Below are positions 8,280-26,449 of a stretch of DNA of 33,788 nucleotides, one piece after another. Under the pieces are notes generated by a model. It saw only the letters and a program-made list of their open reading frames with translations. It had not been told where the DNA came from and searched no databases. The DNA lies in the UHGV virus genome UHGV-0101498; one strand, given 5' to 3'. Within the stretch, counting starts at the first letter, position 1; each line of letters starts with the position of its first letter. The DNA comes from a virus. The position numbers and the translations under genes were made by a program.

Positions 8280-8299
8280 TACTGTAAATATAAACAGTG
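8280..8299. promoter_or_regulatory. LexA (SOS) box tACTGT-N8-ACAGtg upstream of the tum-like operon
   Basis: Seen directly: CTGT(8282-8285)-N8-ACAG(8294-8297), about 42 bp upstream of the ATG at 8341. Confidence 0.7.
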
Positions 8300-8340: not shown

Positions 8341-8529
8341 ATGCAGGACTATTTTTTGGAGTCTTTGAAGCTCCAGCGCATTGATTTTTTTCTTAAGCTT
8401 GTAGCGGCTAGCGAGTGTAGTGATGAAGAGAAGGGGCTGGCTCTGCAGTGGGTTTCTGAATTGACTGATGAACTCATGGCAAAAATCAGAACCCACGAAT
8501 ACAACCGCTCAATGGATGTCATCAGCTGA
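8341..8529 (+). CDS. Small protein (62 aa), candidate Tum-like antirepressor N-terminal module
   Basis: AGGAGG RBS; directly downstream of the LexA box and followed by a DinI-like ORF, matching the recalled layout of the 186 tum locus. Confidence 0.45.
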   Translation: MQDYFLESLKLQRIDFFLKLVAASECSDEEKGLALQWVSELTDELMAKIRTHEYNRSMDVIS

Positions 8530-8539
8530 GGTGACTTTT

Positions 8540-8773
8540 ATGCGCATTGAAATAATGATCGATAAAGAGCAGAAGATTAGCCAGTCTACCCTGGACGCCC
8601 TTGAATCCGAGCTTTACCGCAATCTGCGCCCCCTGTATCCCAAAACGGTAATTCGCATTCGCAAAGGTAGCTCTAACGGTGTGGAACTAACCGGACTGCA
8701 ACTGGACGAAGAAAGAAAACAAGTGATGAAAATTATGCAGAAGGTGTGGGAAGACGACAGCTGGCTGCATTAA
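8540..8773 (+). CDS. DinI-family protein (77 aa)
   Basis: MRIEIMIDK...LDALESELYRNL...VWEDDSWLH follows the DinI pattern (MRIE..IAK...DAL..EL...TWESADDWF); GAGGTG RBS. Confidence 0.7.
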   Translation: MRIEIMIDKEQKISQSTLDALESELYRNLRPLYPKTVIRIRKGSSNGVELTGLQLDEERKQVMKIMQKVWEDDSWLH

Positions 8774-8996: not shown

Positions 8997-9078
8997 CGCG
9001 CGCTTGCTCTTGAAATGAGAAAGTTAATTGGTTAACTTTTTAAGCAGGGTCAACGCACTGTTGAGCAAAGGAGTGAGT

Positions 9079-9726
9079 ATGATTAGTACAGGACATATTG
9101 TCGCTGTTGGCGCGGTTGATGCAGGCGAAGTAAAATTACTGGGTACCGGTTTTGTCATCTCTAATGACAAGATAATTACATCTCGGCATGTAATTCGTGG
9201 TTTTGCTTTTAATATAATAATTTCTCCTTCGGAGATTAATGATTTTAATCTTTATCAAGATACTACAATCAACAGAATTCAGTATTATTCTGTTGAGGTA
9301 ATTGATGAGGATCCAATCAGAGATCTTTGTGTTTTGAAATTTAAGGCAGGATCGTTTTCTGGGCCCAATATTATCCTCTCAAGCTTAGATAAAATATCTA
9401 TTGGTGAAGAAGTTGGTGTTTTGGGTTACCCTCATTGTAATGAGGGTAGAAAAGTACTTACATTCCAAACAGCAAGAGTCGGTGCTAAGGTTTTACTTTC
9501 GAGTAATAATGTAAAGTCTAAACATGCAGTTATAAATTTGCAATCAAGACCAGGTCAATCAGGTTCAGTTATTTTTAATTTAAAAAATAATGAGGTTGTC
9601 GGGGTGTTAGTTGGTGCTTATACAAATAATGCAGCGGGCTCTGTATTTATTGGAGGAATTAATCCTGCAGCTTTGCATCAAACTACTTATGCGATTTCAG
9701 CTGAATATATTAAGGATATGTTATGA
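9079..9726 (+). CDS. Trypsin-like (S1 family) serine protease, 215 aa, cytoplasmic (no signal peptide apparent)
   Basis: Catalytic triad candidates His37 (TSRHV), Asp82 (RDLCVLKF), Ser161 (GQSGS); AGGAG RBS 5 nt before ATG; AT-rich. The ORF track starts at TTG 9028. Confidence 0.75.
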   Translation: MISTGHIVAVGAVDAGEVKLLGTGFVISNDKIITSRHVIRGFAFNIIISPSEINDFNLYQDTTINRIQYYSVEVIDEDPIRDLCVLKFKAGSFSGPNIILSSLDKISIGEEVGVLGYPHCNEGRKVLTFQTARVGAKVLLSSNNVKSKHAVINLQSRPGQSGSVIFNLKNNEVVGVLVGAYTNNAAGSVFIGGINPAALHQTTYAISAEYIKDML

Positions 9727-10169
9727 TCTCTATACCAAATGAAGATGCTGAAGCTTGGCTATCTACCTTAAAAAAATATCAATCATCAACTATTAAATCC
9801 TTTCTCGAGCAAGGTACGGAAGAGCAAGCTCTTGAATCATGGTTAACAGCTTCAGGCCCAAGTTTAACATCTCCATTTGGAGGGGATGCTTCCAGCATGC
9901 CGGGTAAAAAGGCATTTGTTGATCAGTTTAAGCAAGAGTTTAGAGCTTTTGTTTGTGGAAGCGATAAATATGTCAAAGAGAGGAATGGATTGGGTGAGCT
10001 TGGCGGGGATATTAAAACCTATCTTGTCAGTGTTATTTCAAGTTCAATTGCTACCTCTTTAGGTACTACTACAGTATTTATTGCTCCCGCTGTTGTAATC
10101 ATGCTTATTACGATCTCAAAAATGGGTCTTAATGCGTGGTGTTCATTAGAAACCGTAAAAGACTCTTAA
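9723..10169 (+). CDS. Small protein (148 aa) with a soluble N-terminal region and a C-terminal hydrophobic membrane segment; partner of the protease
   Basis: Start overlaps the protease stop (ATGA); C-terminal stretch YLVSVISSSIATSLGTTTVFIAPAVVIMLITISKMGL is predicted transmembrane. Confidence 0.65.
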   Translation: MISIPNEDAEAWLSTLKKYQSSTIKSFLEQGTEEQALESWLTASGPSLTSPFGGDASSMPGKKAFVDQFKQEFRAFVCGSDKYVKERNGLGELGGDIKTYLVSVISSSIATSLGTTTVFIAPAVVIMLITISKMGLNAWCSLETVKDS

Positions 10170-20838: not shown

Positions 20839-21436
20839 TCTGCTGCCACCGGGTTCAACACCACTGGAGCGCCGACTGGCGCAAACCTGCAGCGGGATTT
20901 CTGATCTGCAGGTGCCGCTTCGTGACTTGTGGAATCCGGCAACCTGTCCGGTCAGTTTCCTGCCTTATCTCGCCTGGGCGTTCTCTGTGGATCGCTGGGA
21001 CGAGGGCTGGACAGAAAGCGTCAAGCGCCAGGTGGTGAAGGATGCTTTTTATATTCATCAGCATAAAGGGACCACCAGTGCCGTGCGGCGGGTGGTGGAG
21101 CCGTTCGGATTCCTGATCCGCATTATTGAGTGGTGGCAGACCGGAGAAACACCGGGCACGTTTCGCCTGGATATCGGCGTGCAGGACCAGGGCATCACTG
21201 AAGATACCTATCTGGAACTTGAGCGACTGATAAGCGATGCCAAACCATGTAGCCGCCACATGATCGGCATGTCCATCAATCTGCAGACCAGCGGCCCGCA
21301 TTGGGTGGGAGCCGCCAGCTATCTTGGCGAAGAAATCACGATCTATCCGTATATCAACGAAACGATTATTTCCGGTGGCACCGCGCATGAAGGCGGGGCG
21401 GTCCATGTTATTGACACAATGAGAGTGAATCCATGA
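20831..21436 (+). CDS. I: Baseplate/tail protein (P2 gpI-like)
   Basis: Position and length; overlaps the J stop. Confidence 0.75.
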   Translation: MNSLLPPGSTPLERRLAQTCSGISDLQVPLRDLWNPATCPVSFLPYLAWAFSVDRWDEGWTESVKRQVVKDAFYIHQHKGTTSAVRRVVEPFGFLIRIIEWWQTGETPGTFRLDIGVQDQGITEDTYLELERLISDAKPCSRHMIGMSINLQTSGPHWVGAASYLGEEITIYPYINETIISGGTAHEGGAVHVIDTMRVNP

Positions 21437-22896
21437 GCACAAAATTTTATACCCTGCTGACGGATATTGGCGCGGCGAAACTTGCCAGCGCCGCCGCGCT
21501 CGGTGTGCCGCTAAAAATTACCCATATGGCGGTGGGCGATGGCGGTGGAGTATTGCCAACGCCGGACGCAAAGCAGACGGCACTGGTAAATGAGAAACGC
21601 CGGGCTGCGCTGAATATGCTTTATATCGACCCGCAGAACAGCAGCCAGATTATTGCCGAACAGGTGATCCCTGAAAACGAGGGCGGTTGGTGGATACGTG
21701 AAGTGGGCTTGTTTGATGAGTCCGGGGCATTGATTGCCGTGGGCAACTGCCCGGAAAGCTATAAGCCGCAACTGGCTGAAGGTAGCGGGCGCACTCAGAC
21801 CGTGCGCATGGTGCTGATTACCAGCAGCACGGACAATATCACCCTGAAAATCGACCCTGCTGTAGTGCTGGCAACCCGCAAGTATGTGGATGACAAGGCA
21901 CTGGAGCTGAAGGTGTACGCGGATGATCAGATGGCAAAACATCTTGCCGCACCGGACCCGCATTCACAGTACGCGCCAAAAGCCAGCCCGACATTTACCG
22001 GAACCCCCAAAGCGCCAACGCCAGCGGCGGGGAATAATACCACGCAGGTTGCGACCACTGCGTTTGTACAGGCGGCACTGACGGCCCTTATTAATGGTGC
22101 GCCAGCCACGCTGGACACGCTGAAAGAAATAGCCGCAGCCATTAACAATGATCCGAATTTCAGTACCACCATTAACAATGCGCTGGCACTAAAAGCACCG
22201 TTGTCGAGTCCGGCACTCACCGGAACGCCAACAGCCCCCACGGCGGCGCAGTCGGTCAACAATACACAGATTGCCACTACGGCTTTTGTGAAATCGGCGA
22301 TTGCAGGAATGGTGGGTTCTGCACCTGCTGCACTGGATACACTGAACGAACTGGCGGCGGCACTGGGGAATGATCCGAACTTTGCCACGACAATGCTTAA
22401 TGCGCTGGCAGGTAAACAACCGCTGGACAATACGCTTACCAATTTGAGTGGAAAGGATGTAGCTGGTCTTCTCACATACCTTGGTTTAGGAGAAGGCTCA
22501 GCATTGCCTGTTGGCGTACCTGTTCCGTGGCCTTCAGTCACACCGCCAACAGGCTGGCTGAAATGCAACGGTGCAGCTTTTTCTGCCGAAGAGTATCCGG
22601 AACTGGCAAAAGTTTATCCGACAAATAAATTGCCAGATTTACGCGGCGAATTCATTCGTGGGTGGGATGATGGAAGAGGAATTGATTCAGGACGGACTCT
22701 CCTGTCTGCTCAGGACGGGAGCATTGAGGCACACGGCCATGATTACAATGGGGCCATCTATACTTCTAGCGGTCCTTCCTGGGCTAATACGACGGATGCG
22801 GGACACCGGGCATATTCGGGATTTACATCATCATATGGCGGGAGCGAAACCCGTCCACGAAATATTGCATTTAACTATATCGTGAGGGCTGCATAA
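21433..22896 (+). CDS. H: Tail fibre protein (P2 gpH-like), C-terminal tail-collar-type receptor-binding domain
   Basis: N-terminus MSTKFYTLLTDIGAAKLA...MAVGDGGG as in P2 H; internal repeats; C-terminal WLKCNGAAFSAEEYPELAKVYP...LPDLRGEFIRGW. Confidence 0.85.
   Translation: MSTKFYTLLTDIGAAKLASAAALGVPLKITHMAVGDGGGVLPTPDAKQTALVNEKRRAALNMLYIDPQNSSQIIAEQVIPENEGGWWIREVGLFDESGALIAVGNCPESYKPQLAEGSGRTQTVRMVLITSSTDNITLKIDPAVVLATRKYVDDKALELKVYADDQMAKHLAAPDPHSQYAPKASPTFTGTPKAPTPAAGNNTTQVATTAFVQAALTALINGAPATLDTLKEIAAAINNDPNFSTTINNALALKAPLSSPALTGTPTAPTAAQSVNNTQIATTAFVKSAIAGMVGSAPAALDTLNELAAALGNDPNFATTMLNALAGKQPLDNTLTNLSGKDVAGLLTYLGLGEGSALPVGVPVPWPSVTPPTGWLKCNGAAFSAEEYPELAKVYPTNKLPDLRGEFIRGWDDGRGIDSGRTLLSAQDGSIEAHGHDYNGAIYTSSGPSWANTTDAGHRAYSGFTSSYGGSETRPRNIAFNYIVRAA
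21982..22422 (+). repeat. Two tandem repeats of about 73 aa inside the tail fibre gene H (phage-fibre repeat)
   Basis: Translation shows ...TGTPKAPTPAAGNNTTQVATTAFV...DTLKEIAAAINNDPNFSTT... repeated as ...TGTPTAPTAAQSVNNTQIATTAFV...DTLNELAAALGNDPNFATT... Confidence 0.7.
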
Positions 22897-23495
22897 TGGA
22901 TAACGCCGTATTAAATAGCGAGCTTATTGCCACGAAGGCGGGGAATATTACTGTTTATAACTATGATGGTGAGACGCGGGAATATATTTCTGCATCAACT
23001 GAATATCTTGCAGTGGGTGTCGGTATTCCAGCATATTCCTGTTTAGACGCTCCTGGTACATCTAAGGCTGGTTATACAATTTGCCGTTCTGTGGATTTAA
23101 AATCATGGGAATATGTGTCAGACCATCGCGGTGAAATCGTCTATAACACCGAAACGGGAGAATCGAAAGAAATCACAGCTCCGGGTGATTATCCTGAAAA
23201 TACAACCACTATCGCCCCGTTAACGCCATACGATAAATGGGATGGTGAAAAATGGGTGACGGATATCAATGCTCAGCACGTAGCGGAAGTGGAAGCGGCA
23301 GAGCAACAGAAATCTGTGCAGCTTCTGTTCGCAAAGGAAAAGATCATTCTTTGGCAGACTGAATTACAGCTGGGAATTATCAGCGACGAAGATAAAGAAA
23401 AACTAATATCTTGGGTGAACTATATCAAAGCTGTTCAGGCAGTAGATACCCAGAAAGCTCACAATATCATCTGGCCTAAAAAACCATTCATATAA
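22896..23495 (+). CDS. G: Tail fibre assembly chaperone (P2 gpG-like)
   Basis: Immediately follows H with an overlapping start/stop; 199 aa. Confidence 0.8.
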   Translation: MDNAVLNSELIATKAGNITVYNYDGETREYISASTEYLAVGVGIPAYSCLDAPGTSKAGYTICRSVDLKSWEYVSDHRGEIVYNTETGESKEITAPGDYPENTTTIAPLTPYDKWDGEKWVTDINAQHVAEVEAAEQQKSVQLLFAKEKIILWQTELQLGIISDEDKEKLISWVNYIKAVQAVDTQKAHNIIWPKKPFI

Positions 23496-23497
23496 AT

Positions 23498-23522
23498 AAA
23501 CGCCCCTTATGGGGCGTATTTT
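23498..23522. terminator. Bidirectional rho-independent terminator between G and the convergent acyltransferase gene
   Basis: AAACGCCCC-ttat-GGGGCGT followed by ATTTTG. Confidence 0.65.
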
Positions 23523-24676
23523 GCTGCTTGCACGTTATTCTTTGGAAGAATTTTATTTGATAAATAATTGGAAAATTTTATCGCGTTATCATCAATTAGC
23601 AATTTAAAAATTAAAGCTGCAAGTATTGAAGATAATAAAGTGATTGGGAAAGTAATAAGTAAAGACTTTCCGTATGAAACTCCTGCATCACCAAGCTTAA
23701 TTACGATCAAAGAAGATATTGAAGCTATTAATGGAAAATGCACCAGATAAAGAGAGTATGATACATCTCCAAGAAATTTACAGGTTTTTGTTTTGAATAA
23801 ATTTGAGATAACTATTGATTTATCAATTGCTATAATAAGAAACATTGAACCAAAGGCTTGAGAAACAATTCTCAAATCAAAGTAAGTTATGTCACTGTTA
23901 TTTATCCAGATACTATGTTCAGTTATAAAATATGGGTATGAACCTAGGTAACATCCTAGTAAAATAAACATAAAGATAATTGTGGTATTAATTTTCTTTA
24001 TATTAACTGAAACATCTGCACAAATCACCCCTAATATAAATCCTAATAGATGACTTGAGCTAAATACCACAATACCCAAAGTATAAAAAGCAAACCTAAT
24101 TCTGGTAGTGCAAACTAGTGGGACCAGAACGAGTACAAGAATTGAGCCAACCAATTCGGTGTGAATGGTCCATAATACTGGGTTTAATGTTTGAACTCCG
24201 TAAAAATATGTACCAATACCCCCTTCCCATACCGCATTCAGTAATGTCATTGTAGTTGGCATCGCTGGGATTACTTGTGATAAAGAGTACACTGCAGTTT
24301 CTGATGAATGAAATCCAATCGTTGTCATCAGAATAAAGGAAAATATAGTAGATGCAATGGTAGGTATTGCAAGACGTGGGTATCTCTTGATAATGGATTT
24401 AGAGTACCATTCTAGCCCCTTCCCTTTGAAAAAGGGAATCGATAGAACCATTCCACTCAAAACGAAGAAAAGCATTACGGCAAAGTGACCATTATATAAT
24501 ATATTAAATGGAGTTTCACTTATGTATTTCTCTCCATAATGATCTATCTGATTTTGAACAAAAACAGATGGTAGAAAGAATTGCATGAAATGGCTTATTA
24601 AAACTATCAAGCAAGCTATACCACGAATACCATCCAGTGCGTGATCTCGGGAAGGCGTCGTTAATTGTTGAACCAT
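23507..24676 (-). CDS. Integral-membrane acyltransferase (acyltransferase-3/OafA-like); candidate O-antigen or surface-polysaccharide acetyltransferase
   Basis: About 390 aa with about 10 predicted transmembrane helices; N-terminal LDGIRGIA...LISHF motif; AT-rich. Alternative start at 24691. Confidence 0.75.
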   Translation of the reverse strand: MVQQLTTPSRDHALDGIRGIACLIVLISHFMQFFLPSVFVQNQIDHYGEKYISETPFNILYNGHFAVMLFFVLSGMVLSIPFFKGKGLEWYSKSIIKRYPRLAIPTIASTIFSFILMTTIGFHSSETAVYSLSQVIPAMPTTMTLLNAVWEGGIGTYFYGVQTLNPVLWTIHTELVGSILVLVLVPLVCTTRIRFAFYTLGIVVFSSSHLLGFILGVICADVSVNIKKINTTIIFMFILLGCYLGSYPYFITEHSIWINNSDITYFDLRIVSQAFGSMFLIIAIDKSIVISNLFKTKTCKFLGDVSYSLYLVHFPLIASISSLIVIKLGDAGVSYGKSLLITFPITLLSSILAALIFKLLIDDNAIKFSNYLSNKILPKNNVQAAKYAP

Positions 24677-24918
24677 CAATTCCTCACACATTGTAATAAA
24701 GTATTAAAATAAAATAGTAAAAGCAGAATATACAAATACGAAAAGCGGAATTATACTTTACAAGAGTGCTTGATGCTATTGTTTTGTCGAGATTTATAAT
24801 CTGATCTTCTGTAGATGTTGTCCTGGCATTGTCCAATCATGATCTATGGGCTGGCTGGCGAACTTTCGATAGTGCGAGTATTGAATGATTTCCAGCCGTT
24901 ACCGATTTTACGTGTTAA

Positions 24919-25167
24919 TTAGTGAACAAACCACTCGTCAGCAGATTCCCAGGTATCTTTCAGAGTCTCCTGAACAAAAGTTTTTGCAGAATCCTTATCT
25001 GCGGTGCGTGTAACAGAAAGGCCATCGTTGCTGGTGGCTTTTACGATCACCTCTACATCGTCATAACGTTTACTGATGCGTCGGGTTAATTCTTCCTTTA
25101 ACGCATCCACAGCACCGGTTGGCATTTTAGTCATTTTTTCTTTGGCTATGCAGATTTCAATACGCAT
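24919..25167 (-). CDS. DinI-family protein (82 aa)
   Basis: [31 protein letters not shown]...[11 protein letters not shown], strongly DinI-like; GAGGGA RBS. Confidence 0.8.
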
Positions 25168-25180
25168 AAAAGTCCCTCTA

Positions 25181-25200
25181 TACTGTGTTTGTATACAGTA
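25181..25200. promoter_or_regulatory. LexA box TACTGTGTTTGTATACAGTA (near-perfect palindrome) upstream of the DinI-like gene
   Basis: CTGT-N8-ACAG seen directly, 14 bp upstream of the start codon. Confidence 0.75.
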
Positions 25201-25208
25201 TTATTTTT

Positions 25209-25228
25209 AACTGTATGGATAAACAGTG
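25209..25228. promoter_or_regulatory. Second LexA box aACTGTatggataaACAGtg
   Basis: CTGT-N8-ACAG, 8 bp from the first box; abuts the stop of the tyrosine recombinase gene. Confidence 0.6.
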
Positions 25229-25855
25229 TCAAGAGGTCTTATTTCTGCTCCTTTGGAGCTCTTCAAAACGATTATGTAAAGATTTCGGATACAGTTCGGT
25301 ATATACCTGCCATAGCACGTTTAATGAACGATGCCCTGTAACCTGGGCGACTTCCTCAATACTAAAACCAGCCTCAAATAAGCGACTTGCCCCTTCTCTA
25401 CGCAAATCATGGTATCGCAGATCTTTAATACCTAATTTGCTTCTTACCCTCTGGAATCCCGCAGTAACAGAAGTGCTGTTATATGGAAAAATGAATTCTG
25501 ATTTTTTGGGTTGTCGTTGGACGATATCCCAGGCTTCCCCAAGCAAGGCTACTTTCATATGGTTGCCTTCCTTTTTACGTGGATCTTTCCTGTCTCTTAC
25601 GAGTATGGATTTTTGTTCCTGATCGAGATCCTCCCATCGTAATCGGCATACTTCACCGATTCGCATACATGACCACACAGAAAATTTGAGGATATCAACG
25701 AACGGAATTTTTGAGCATTTATGTGTAGATCGTTGTTGAAGACCTTCAATGAGCATGTCCAGTTCATCAGATGCCGGTCTACGATTACGACGATTTGATT
25801 TACCAATTAAACCAACGTTTAAGAAAATGCAGAGGTAACAGCTAACTGGCATCAT
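25229..25855 (-). CDS. Short tyrosine recombinase (catalytic domain only, about 208 aa): FimB/FimE-like switch recombinase or 5'-truncated integrase
   Basis: R (RIGEVCRLR), HxxR (YHDLRREG) and H...Y (GHRSLNVLWQVYTELY) motifs present; no N-terminal core-binding domain; no good RBS. Confidence 0.55.
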   Translation of the reverse strand: MMPVSCYLCIFLNVGLIGKSNRRNRRPASDELDMLIEGLQQRSTHKCSKIPFVDILKFSVWSCMRIGEVCRLRWEDLDQEQKSILVRDRKDPRKKEGNHMKVALLGEAWDIVQRQPKKSEFIFPYNSTSVTAGFQRVRSKLGIKDLRYHDLRREGASRLFEAGFSIEEVAQVTGHRSLNVLWQVYTELYPKSLHNRFEELQRSRNKTS

Positions 25856-25882: not shown

Positions 25883-26449
25883 ATGCTTATTGGCTATGTA
25901 CGCGTGTCAACAAATGACCAGAACACCGATTTGCAACGTAATGCACTGAACTGCGCGGGATGTGAGCGGATTTTTGAGGACAAAATCAGTGGCACTAAGT
26001 CCGACAGACCGGGGCTGAAAAAACTACTCAGGACACTATCGGCAGGAGACACGCTGGTTGTCTGGAAGCTGGACATGTTGGGGCGCAGTATGCGGCATCT
26101 TGTTACGCTGATAGAAGAGTTGCGCCAGCGTGGTGTGAATTTCAGAAGCCTGACTGACAGTATTGATACCAGTACCCCAATGGGCCGTTTCTTTTTTCAT
26201 GTCATGGGTGCCCTGGCTGAAATGGAACGCGAACTGATAGTTGAACGTACCAGGGCAGGGCTGGCTGCAGCTCGTGCCAAAGGCAGAGTAGGTGGACGCC
26301 GTCCTAAGTTGACCACCGAACAGTGGGCACAGATTGGGCGTTTACTCGAGGCCGGAGAATCAATACAGCGTATTGCACTGATTTTTGATGTAGGCGTTTC
26401 TACCATTTATAGAAAATTTCCGGCAAATAAGATCAATGAATCCCCCTGA
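25883..26449 (+). CDS. Serine recombinase, DNA invertase of the Hin/Gin/Pin family (188 aa)
   Basis: MLIGYVRVSTNDQNTDLQRNAL...SLTDSIDTSTPMGRFFFHVMGALAEMERELIVERT with a C-terminal HTH, nearly co-linear with Hin/Gin as recalled; GGGGG RBS 6 nt before the ATG. Confidence 0.85.
   Translation: MLIGYVRVSTNDQNTDLQRNALNCAGCERIFEDKISGTKSDRPGLKKLLRTLSAGDTLVVWKLDMLGRSMRHLVTLIEELRQRGVNFRSLTDSIDTSTPMGRFFFHVMGALAEMERELIVERTRAGLAAARAKGRVGGRRPKLTTEQWAQIGRLLEAGESIQRIALIFDVGVSTIYRKFPANKINESP

Follow-up and report, generated by a model that had tools for sequence, protein, structure and literature searches.

The UHGV virus genome UHGV-0101498, 33,788 nt in length and considered over its whole extent (hereafter, the window), is a complete P2-like E. 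coli prophage that carries, at positions 23507-24676 of the minus strand, a gene for a membrane acyltransferase of the acyltransferase-3 (AT3) family. We found that this gene lies within a Din-type invertible segment, in which it takes the place of the alternate fibre arm, and that the segment still inverts. We consider that the gene, as foreign cargo, probably encodes a functional stand-alone AT3 O-acyltransferase, for which the most likely acceptor class would be lipopolysaccharide (LPS), with lysogenic conversion as the outcome. A phage AT3 moron is a known kind of element; what is new here is its unusual, actively inverting setting, and in the literature searched we found no description of a tail-fibre inversion segment that has taken up an AT3 cargo via a quasi-site and is still active.

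The longest open reading frame (ORF) at this position in the ORF listing spans 23507-24691 (minus strand, 394 aa) and begins at an upstream ATG at 24691. The start is likely the second ATG, at 24676, which gives a protein of 389 aa: it agrees with the coordinates of the original prediction, RefSeq calls it in E. coli loci that are identical, and the homologues have it in common; a GAGGA Shine-Dalgarno sequence lies 5 nt upstream from it. The protein matched Pfam PF01757 (Acyl_transf_3) with an E value of 6e-27 and 95 bits (cut-off 31) over residues 17-361, corresponding to profile positions 2-323 of 326, and it matched PHROG 3333, annotated as O-acetyltransferase, with an E value of 3e-26. Three motifs were recognised, precisely R18-X10-H29, F70-F71-V-L-S74-G75 and R98-Y-P-R101 (389-aa numbering), all of them invariant in an alignment of 70 homologous sequences and aligned with those of Sf6 Oac. 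R/K-X10-H in the first transmembrane helix, an FFXISG-type motif in the second and RXXR are the function-defining motifs of AT3 proteins, and their mutational importance is documented (PMC7448272; PMC9558356). The AlphaFold2 model built with 70 homologues (predicted local distance difference test 92.2, predicted template modelling score 0.91) contained helices only, with about 10-11 long ones; we took the helix count from this model, since a crude hydropathy count of transmembrane segments was too noisy. The membership of the AT3 family that the original prediction had claimed is confirmed by the two profile matches and the three motifs, and its figure of approximately 10 transmembrane helices is reasonable in the light of the all-helical model. 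The chain terminates at residue 389, past its last membrane helices, and neither a second Pfam domain besides Acyl_transf_3 in the protein nor a gene for an SGNH protein in the cassette was found.

The GC content of the AT3 gene is 33.4%, versus 55-57% for the phage and 0.555 for the constant part of the tail-fibre gene H. By comparison with an 82%-identical allele, the ratio of nonsynonymous to synonymous substitution rates (dN/dS) was 0.11, with dS of about 1. Since 1.17 kb stay open in DNA of such a low GC content and since dN/dS has this value, the gene is not a chance ORF. On these sequence grounds we regard it as genuine, intact, under purifying selection and horizontally acquired.

The invertible segment is bounded by two 26-bp Din crossover sites. 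The left one, TTCTCACATACC TT GGTTTAGGAGAA (22469-22494, plus strand), was recognised by repeat search, by the sites of a relative and by the consensus in PMC4134206, and lies in gene H (21433-22896, plus strand, 487 aa, ORF and Pfam) at the junction between the constant part, which extends to about 22468, and the variable tip with its Collar domain (22495-22896). The right one, TTTTCTTAAACG TT GGTTTAATTGGT (25802-25827, minus strand, repeat search and junction comparison), is a hybrid, in which the outer half is canonical and the inner half derives from an integrase gene. The published Din crossover consensus and the sites of EC958 Phi2 (PMC4134206) match the sites of the window. Immediately beyond the right site there is an intact Din-family serine DNA invertase gene (25883-26449, plus strand; Resolvase and HTH_7 domains, Pfam and PHROG). 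Inside the segment, the tip is followed by the gene for the tail-fibre assembly protein Tfa (22896-23495, plus strand; Caudo_TAP, Pfam, PHROG and homology), of which the last 160-230 nt are co-inherited with AT3, and then, on the opposite strand, by AT3, by a dinI-like gene (24919-25167, minus strand, upstream of AT3, Pfam and PHROG) and by the remnant of a dusA-type tyrosine integrase that keeps the C-terminal catalytic domain (25229-25855, minus strand; ORF, Pfam and PHROG). The 5′ side of this remnant is cut exactly at the right crossover site, and its reading frame is open through the site. The closest P2-like relatives (L010) have instead a classical switch, in which H and tfa are followed by tfa′ and an alternate tip on the other strand and then by the Din invertase; in the window the second arm consists of AT3, dinI and the integrase remnant in place of the alternate tip and tfa′, so the two-tip mirror layout is absent. 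AT3 is thus found on the 3′ side of the fibre module; the invertible segment around it had been overlooked.

Taken alone, the repeat AAACCNNGGTTT, one mismatch being allowed, lacks significance, with 2 occurrences in the window versus 1.1 expected. A chance match is ruled out by the homology breakpoints at the sites, by the canonical sites of the relative and by the flipped assemblies. Among public assemblies with an identical AT3 protein, in fact, 12 P2-like contigs had the orientation of the window and 2 the opposite one, and 2 flipped versions were found for a tonB-side prophage carrying AT3; L106 and L105 are among the flipped assemblies. In L106 (GCA_031526925.1) the region 22468-25818 is inverted between flanks that are colinear with those of the window, with the breakpoints at 22468-22488 and 25808-25818, inside both crossover sites, and with a new junction, TTCTCACATACC TT GGTTTAATTGGT, that matches the prediction. 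In the flipped state an in-frame fusion arises between H and the integrase remnant, with a called product of 544 aa that has Phage_tail_fib and Phage_integrase domains (L106:2814-4448), and joining 21433-22482 to the reverse complement from 25813 downward predicts the same fusion in the window; the true fibre tip becomes an orphan ORF of 151 aa. The switch is degenerate, with a complete fibre in one state and a probably useless chimera in the other. An inversion-made fibre chimera of e14 has been reported to block T2 adsorption (2025 paper, PMC12529663). The orientation also changes the position of AT3 with respect to the late tail operon, to which it is antisense in the window state, whereas dinI and AT3 are codirectional with it in the flipped state. 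Since there is no predicted terminator between the fusion ORF, dinI and AT3, read-through from the late operon would be possible in the flipped state.

Several known systems share this arrangement only in part. Like Mu G/Gin, P1 C/Cin, e14 P/Pin and EC958 Phi1/2/4, the window has an adjacent serine invertase and 26-bp inverted sites, and like Din-type segments it has the central dinucleotide, a site inside the fibre gene and both orientations in sequenced populations. It differs from canonical Din segments in that only one arm consists of a fibre tip and Tfa, one site is a hybrid and the flipped state produces a fibre::integrase chimera.

The origin of the hybrid site was traced by comparison with other prophages. 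In 6 complete E. coli genomes the fibre gene and tfa are convergent to AT3, dinI and an intact integrase gene, which is followed by dusA, and this dusA-side block, with the textbook layout of conversion loci, is 99.8% identical to window 22470-25823. A quasi Din crossover site, ACCAATTAAACC AA GTTTAAGTAGAT, is present in the intact dusA-type integrase gene (L012:7765-8862, E. coli WP4-S18-ESBL-09), and the window switches to the canonical P2-like right site exactly after the AAACC AA of this quasi-site. In the tonB-side prophage L001 the same integrase position is joined, at the AA core, to the site of another invertase. The left homology boundary coincides with the left crossover site in every context compared, and the same block is found at 99.5-99.8% identity in P2-like, tonB-side, ykgL-side, dusA and prfC prophage contexts. 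As the simplest reading of these sequences, the block formed by AT3, dinI and the truncated integrase gene (int′) would come from a dusA-integrating prophage and would have been joined by invertase recombination at the quasi-site; the joining may have occurred once, with later exchange, or twice. Recombination of an invertase at quasi-sites is known for Cin, according to references cited in PMC4134206. Precisely, AT3 would have reached the phages of E. coli as a moron in a dusA-integrating prophage, inserted between its tail-fibre module and its integrase/attachment end, and the variable tip of H (Hv), tfa, AT3, dinI and int′ would then have been moved together into P2-like and other prophages, within their invertible fibre segment, with the joins at the left crossover site and at the quasi-crossover site in the integrase gene and with the displacement of the alternate fibre arm.

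Two further observations concern the limits and the interior of the block. In the E. coli assemblies L099, L104 and L107 the fibre-Tfa-AT3-dinI block stands at the end of a prophage with a Mu-like tail and adjoins prfC, without an integrase, and the homology to the window ends at 25235, just past the dinI promoter. Between AT3 and dinI there is also a 72-nt fragment annotated by RefSeq as a capsid protein pseudogene (about 24851-24922 of the window, L001:7552-7623), a capsid-gene scar which suggests that phage DNA was assembled piecemeal to form the cargo block itself.

As claimed previously, AT3 is convergent to the tail-fibre genes: the tfa stop is at 23495 and the AT3 stop codon at 23507-23509, with 11 bp separating the AT3 3′ end from the tfa stop. 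A 7-bp GC-rich hairpin between the tfa stop and the AT3 3′ end, ACGCCCC-TTAT-GGGGCGT (23500-23517), is predicted to act as an intrinsic terminator on both strands. Upstream from AT3 there is an AT-rich spacer of 242 bp (24677-24918, minus strand, 35% GC), recognised by its composition and by the promoter and terminator scan, in which TATAAT occurs at 24755-24750 without a convincing -35 element. The dinI-like gene is preceded by a promoter-like site, TTGACA-18-AAAAAT (25183-25232, minus strand), overlapped by two perfect LexA boxes at 25183-25198 and 25211-25226, and no predicted terminator was found between dinI and AT3 or within the AT3 spacer. We put forward as a hypothesis that dinI and AT3 may be co-transcribed under SOS control. 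In 3 complete genomes (L002:8081-8778, that is E. coli C1, and H47/H53) IS1 or another break truncates the block at about 24911 of the window, just upstream from AT3. In all three dinI is gone and AT3 is intact; as everything upstream of about 24911 has been lost to IS1 in some genomes, any expression of AT3 there would come from the spacer.

We infer the enzymatic activity, the donor, the acceptor, the expression and the phenotype of AT3. By family, the protein would be a polytopic inner-membrane enzyme that binds a cytoplasmic acyl-CoA via the R/K-X10-H and RXXR residues and passes the acyl group through a transmembrane pore to an envelope glycan exposed to the periplasm, on one of its sugar hydroxyls, presumably without an SGNH partner. 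That the protein is an active O-acyltransferase of an envelope glycan is very probable, and the acyl group transferred is most likely an acetyl group. The acceptor class would most likely be LPS, either O-antigen or core, which would lead to lysogenic conversion, an altered surface and possibly altered phage adsorption; the choice of LPS in particular is tentative, the chances for and against it being roughly balanced. The phage AT3 enzymes Sf6 Oac, BTP1 OafB and phiV10 acetylate the O-antigen and block the adsorption of their own phage (PMC9558356), and by analogy with them the designation of O-antigen acetylase is plausible as the leading guess.

The comparison with these characterised enzymes clarifies which of them AT3 resembles. 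The original prediction likened the protein to OafA/Oac-type enzymes. OafA and OafB of Salmonella and OatA have the AT3 domain and the acyl-CoA-binding motifs in common with it; an AT3-SGNH fusion of the OafA/OafB/OatA type is ruled out, since AT3 lacks the SGNH domain and the 11th helix with its linker, so the OafA part of that comparison does not stand. As regards Oac, Sf6 Oac (OacA), OacB-D and the phiV10 enzyme are, like AT3, stand-alone proteins with R/K-X10-H, FFxxSG and RXXR, and the AT3-only proteins Oac, WbaK and Lag-1 are likewise free of SGNH. The identity to Sf6 Oac is 24%, and an hhalign match of 93% covers only 83 N-terminal, motif-bearing columns; no full-length sequence relatedness to Oac or OacB-D was found. 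The gene order is comparable too. Sf6 oac is convergent to the gene of the receptor-binding protein, with a terminator between them, as in the window, and the order tailspike, oac and int up to attP in Sf6 mirrors the ancestral order of fibre gene and tfa, convergent to AT3, dinI and int, up to the attachment site.

A second comparison is offered by NeaT (c0970; L098:28883-29914, 343 aa) of E. coli CFT073, a PF01757 protein encoded, at about 30% GC, by the opposite strand of phi-b0847, a P2-like prophage (Wiles et al. 2013, PMC3573123). It occupies 'moron position 2', between the homologue of tail-fibre gene G, yfdK (annotated by RefSeq as a tail-fibre assembly protein), and FI; it favours fitness in the bloodstream and affects aggregation, has no assigned substrate, and 211 bp of its native upstream sequence drive its expression (PMC3573123). 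Like NeaT, AT3 is on the opposite strand between tfa (G) and FI of a P2-like prophage and is phyletically rare, the homologues of NeaT being scattered in unrelated phages and phyla. AT3 is additionally in an invertible segment, whereas NeaT lies directly between tfa and FI, without invertase, dinI or integrase remnant. Identity with NeaT is ruled out (BLASTP E=1, hhalign 40%); in the lack of any detectable similarity, the same P2 slot has been filled at least twice by unrelated AT3 lineages, that is, by independent acquisition.

The exact AT3 gene was found in 11 of 5,426 complete E. coli genomes. In a large protein collection the next relatives had 82%, 68% and 57% identity, followed by proteins with at most 40% from Pseudomonas, Paenibacillus, Lysinibacillus, Methanosarcina and others, and none of them had a functional name beyond a generic COG label. 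The 82% relative (L003) is in a prophage, convergent to Caudo_TAP and fibre genes, and the 68% one (L005) is in a prophage with a like layout. A 39% relative (L007) adjoins gpD in a Pseudomonas P2-like prophage, one of 38-39% (L008) is in a prophage-like region with an integrase gene about 4 kb off, and one of 36% (L013:7001-8146) is in the tail module of a Lysinibacillus fusiformis siphophage, codirectional with its neighbours and flanked by the Sipho_tail (Dit-like) gene and the Prophage_tail (Tal-like) one; two others (L006 and L015, 40% and 33%) are chromosomal and non-phage. This AT3 lineage is a recurrent phage cargo beside receptor-binding genes, in Gram-negative and Gram-positive hosts, and this position fits the modification of a phage-relevant surface glycan. 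Other searches contributed little on the substrate. The PDB sequence search gave no match and no AT3 chain, and in the PDB fold search (Foldseek) only HGSNAT transmembrane acetyltransferases were found at high probability (0.66-0.90, TM-score about 0.37), a weak result, uninformative on substrate; the BFVD fold search gave one unnamed match. By tblastn of a phage collection at 1e-5 we obtained, as weak matches, two uncharacterised acyltransferases only, from Pantoea phage PA-1 and Tunturiibacter phage Tunturi_4, with neither Sf6, phiV10 nor any characterised phage acetylase among them. The scan of genome contigs gave relatives of at most 33% identity from many phyla, of no use for context or substrate.

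The association of AT3 with one fibre type was considered as well. The full Hv and Tfa at an identity of at least 99% occur only in the same 11 complete genomes as AT3, a co-occurrence that is one of physical linkage, as is to be expected of a 2.4-kb block. Related tips and Tfa (92-97% identity) are found in many phages without AT3, with the divergence in the last 190-230 nt of tfa, and the 82% and 68% alleles of AT3 adjoin another fibre type (Gp53-like_C). The proposed coupling of AT3 to the receptor specificity of the phage's own fibre has this linkage as its basis, and is neither supported nor excluded.

Some results weigh against a functional enzyme of LPS, and they have to be set beside the rival explanations that they favour. 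No characterised close homologue of AT3 was found in NCBIfam, in the protein collection or in the PDB, and for the fibre tip there was no characterised relative either, the best match being of at most 65% identity and without receptor information. Carriers include the unrelated lineages sequence type (ST) 648 and ST165, according to the literature on the strains, and this mildly favours a conserved acceptor over one O-unit. Members of the clade occur in a Gram-positive phage and in archaea, and since no O-antigen exists in the host of the 36% relative, the lineage is not O-antigen-specific. In NCBIfam the best named match was OpgC, with an E value of 0.004, far below its cut-off. As AT3 proteins have many and diverse acceptors (PMC9558356), the ST distribution, the Gram-positive relative and OpgC, which is the sole and weak named match, speak for an active enzyme on a glycan other than LPS, such as enterobacterial common antigen, colanic acid or capsule, osmoregulated periplasmic glucans or peptidoglycan, that would serve host fitness or virulence rather than phage exclusion. 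NeaT, from the same P2 slot and with its effects on aggregation and bloodstream fitness, adds to this, no link to LPS having been reported for it (PMC3573123); AT3, however, has no sequence similarity to NeaT, it stays beside receptor-binding genes across several alleles, and most of the characterised enterobacterial phage AT3 enzymes act on the O-antigen (PMC9558356), so that we hold an acceptor other than LPS to be somewhat unlikely.

A further objection concerns expression. The sigma-70 promoter scan gave 11 sites versus 9.8 expected from shuffled sequences, and none in 24692-24918 of the minus strand. With no convincing promoter, a GC content that has not been ameliorated, a rarity of 11 in 5,426 genomes and a location in a degenerate switch, the fibre gene being destroyed in its flipped state, AT3 could be a silent hitch-hiker linked to a useful cassette of tip and Tfa, unexpressed (for example, silenced by H-NS) or without an acceptor in its hosts. 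We judge this very improbable: dN/dS is low over a dS of about 1 with respect to the 82% allele, the catalytic motifs are kept across 70 homologues, the ORF is intact in every sampled context, and NeaT, similarly AT-rich, is expressed from its short native upstream DNA (PMC3573123). The inversion itself could also matter, in that flipped dinI and AT3 would be read from the late tail operon and acylation would be tied to lytic development or to a subpopulation. Both orientations exist, the path from the fusion ORF to AT3 is free of predicted terminators, and a connection with SOS and induction is suggested by the LexA boxes that lie upstream of dinI. However, a promoter of the block would move along with it, so expression in the lysogen need not depend on orientation, and the loss of the fibre in the flipped state resembles collateral damage rather than design; an orientation-dependent role is, for these reasons, improbable. 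A bolder extension, for which we see little likelihood, would treat Hv, Tfa and AT3 as a self-matched cassette for receptor binding and receptor masking, shuttled between unrelated phages by Din invertases through site-specific cassette exchange, also at quasi-sites, with inversion as a phase switch between infective particles and a disabled fibre accompanied by late-operon (and SOS) expression of dinI and AT3, in which acylation would be tied to induction or to a subpopulation. An O-acyltransferase carried as foreign cargo, with LPS as its most likely acceptor class, is the explanation that we prefer.

The remainder of the window confirms that the gene is prophage-borne, as had been stated. 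A flanking host TetR gene is followed by genes for integrase, CI, CII, Dam and gpA, by a cargo region at 9.0-10.2 kb, and then by the portal to capsid, lysis and baseplate genes, H, Tfa and FI to D, with homology to E. coli P2-like prophages on the ogr side. The identity to many E. coli P2-like prophages is 98%, except for about 13% of the window that includes the AT3 region. The first cargo region consists of two genes (9028-10169, plus strand, GC about 37%) in the P2 'moron position 1', which separates gpA/DinI from the portal gene, and PADLOC assigns it to the candidate defence system PDC-M35 (A: E value of 1.5e-91, trypsin-like protease; B: E value of 6e-57); no PADLOC defence-system model was matched by AT3, dinI or the integrase remnant. 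A second gene of the DinI family (8468-8773, plus strand) is in the usual P2-like position, with a perfect LexA box at 8282-8297, so that the prophage has two dinI-like genes, the one at 24919-25167 being that of the invertible segment.

Phage AT3 enzymes alter serotype, vaccine epitopes and the susceptibility to phages or tailocins. A new and rare AT3 lineage that moves among E. coli prophages, including those of ST648 clinical isolates, is, given such effects, a candidate source of surface variation that would escape typing schemes and the matching of phages for therapy; this practical importance is potential, as it depends on a function that we infer. As to the phages themselves, the invertase sites and the integrase quasi-site appear to serve as portable junctions that move a 3.3-kb cargo between unrelated phage backbones, and fibre-inversion switches can decay into cargo holders that still flip.

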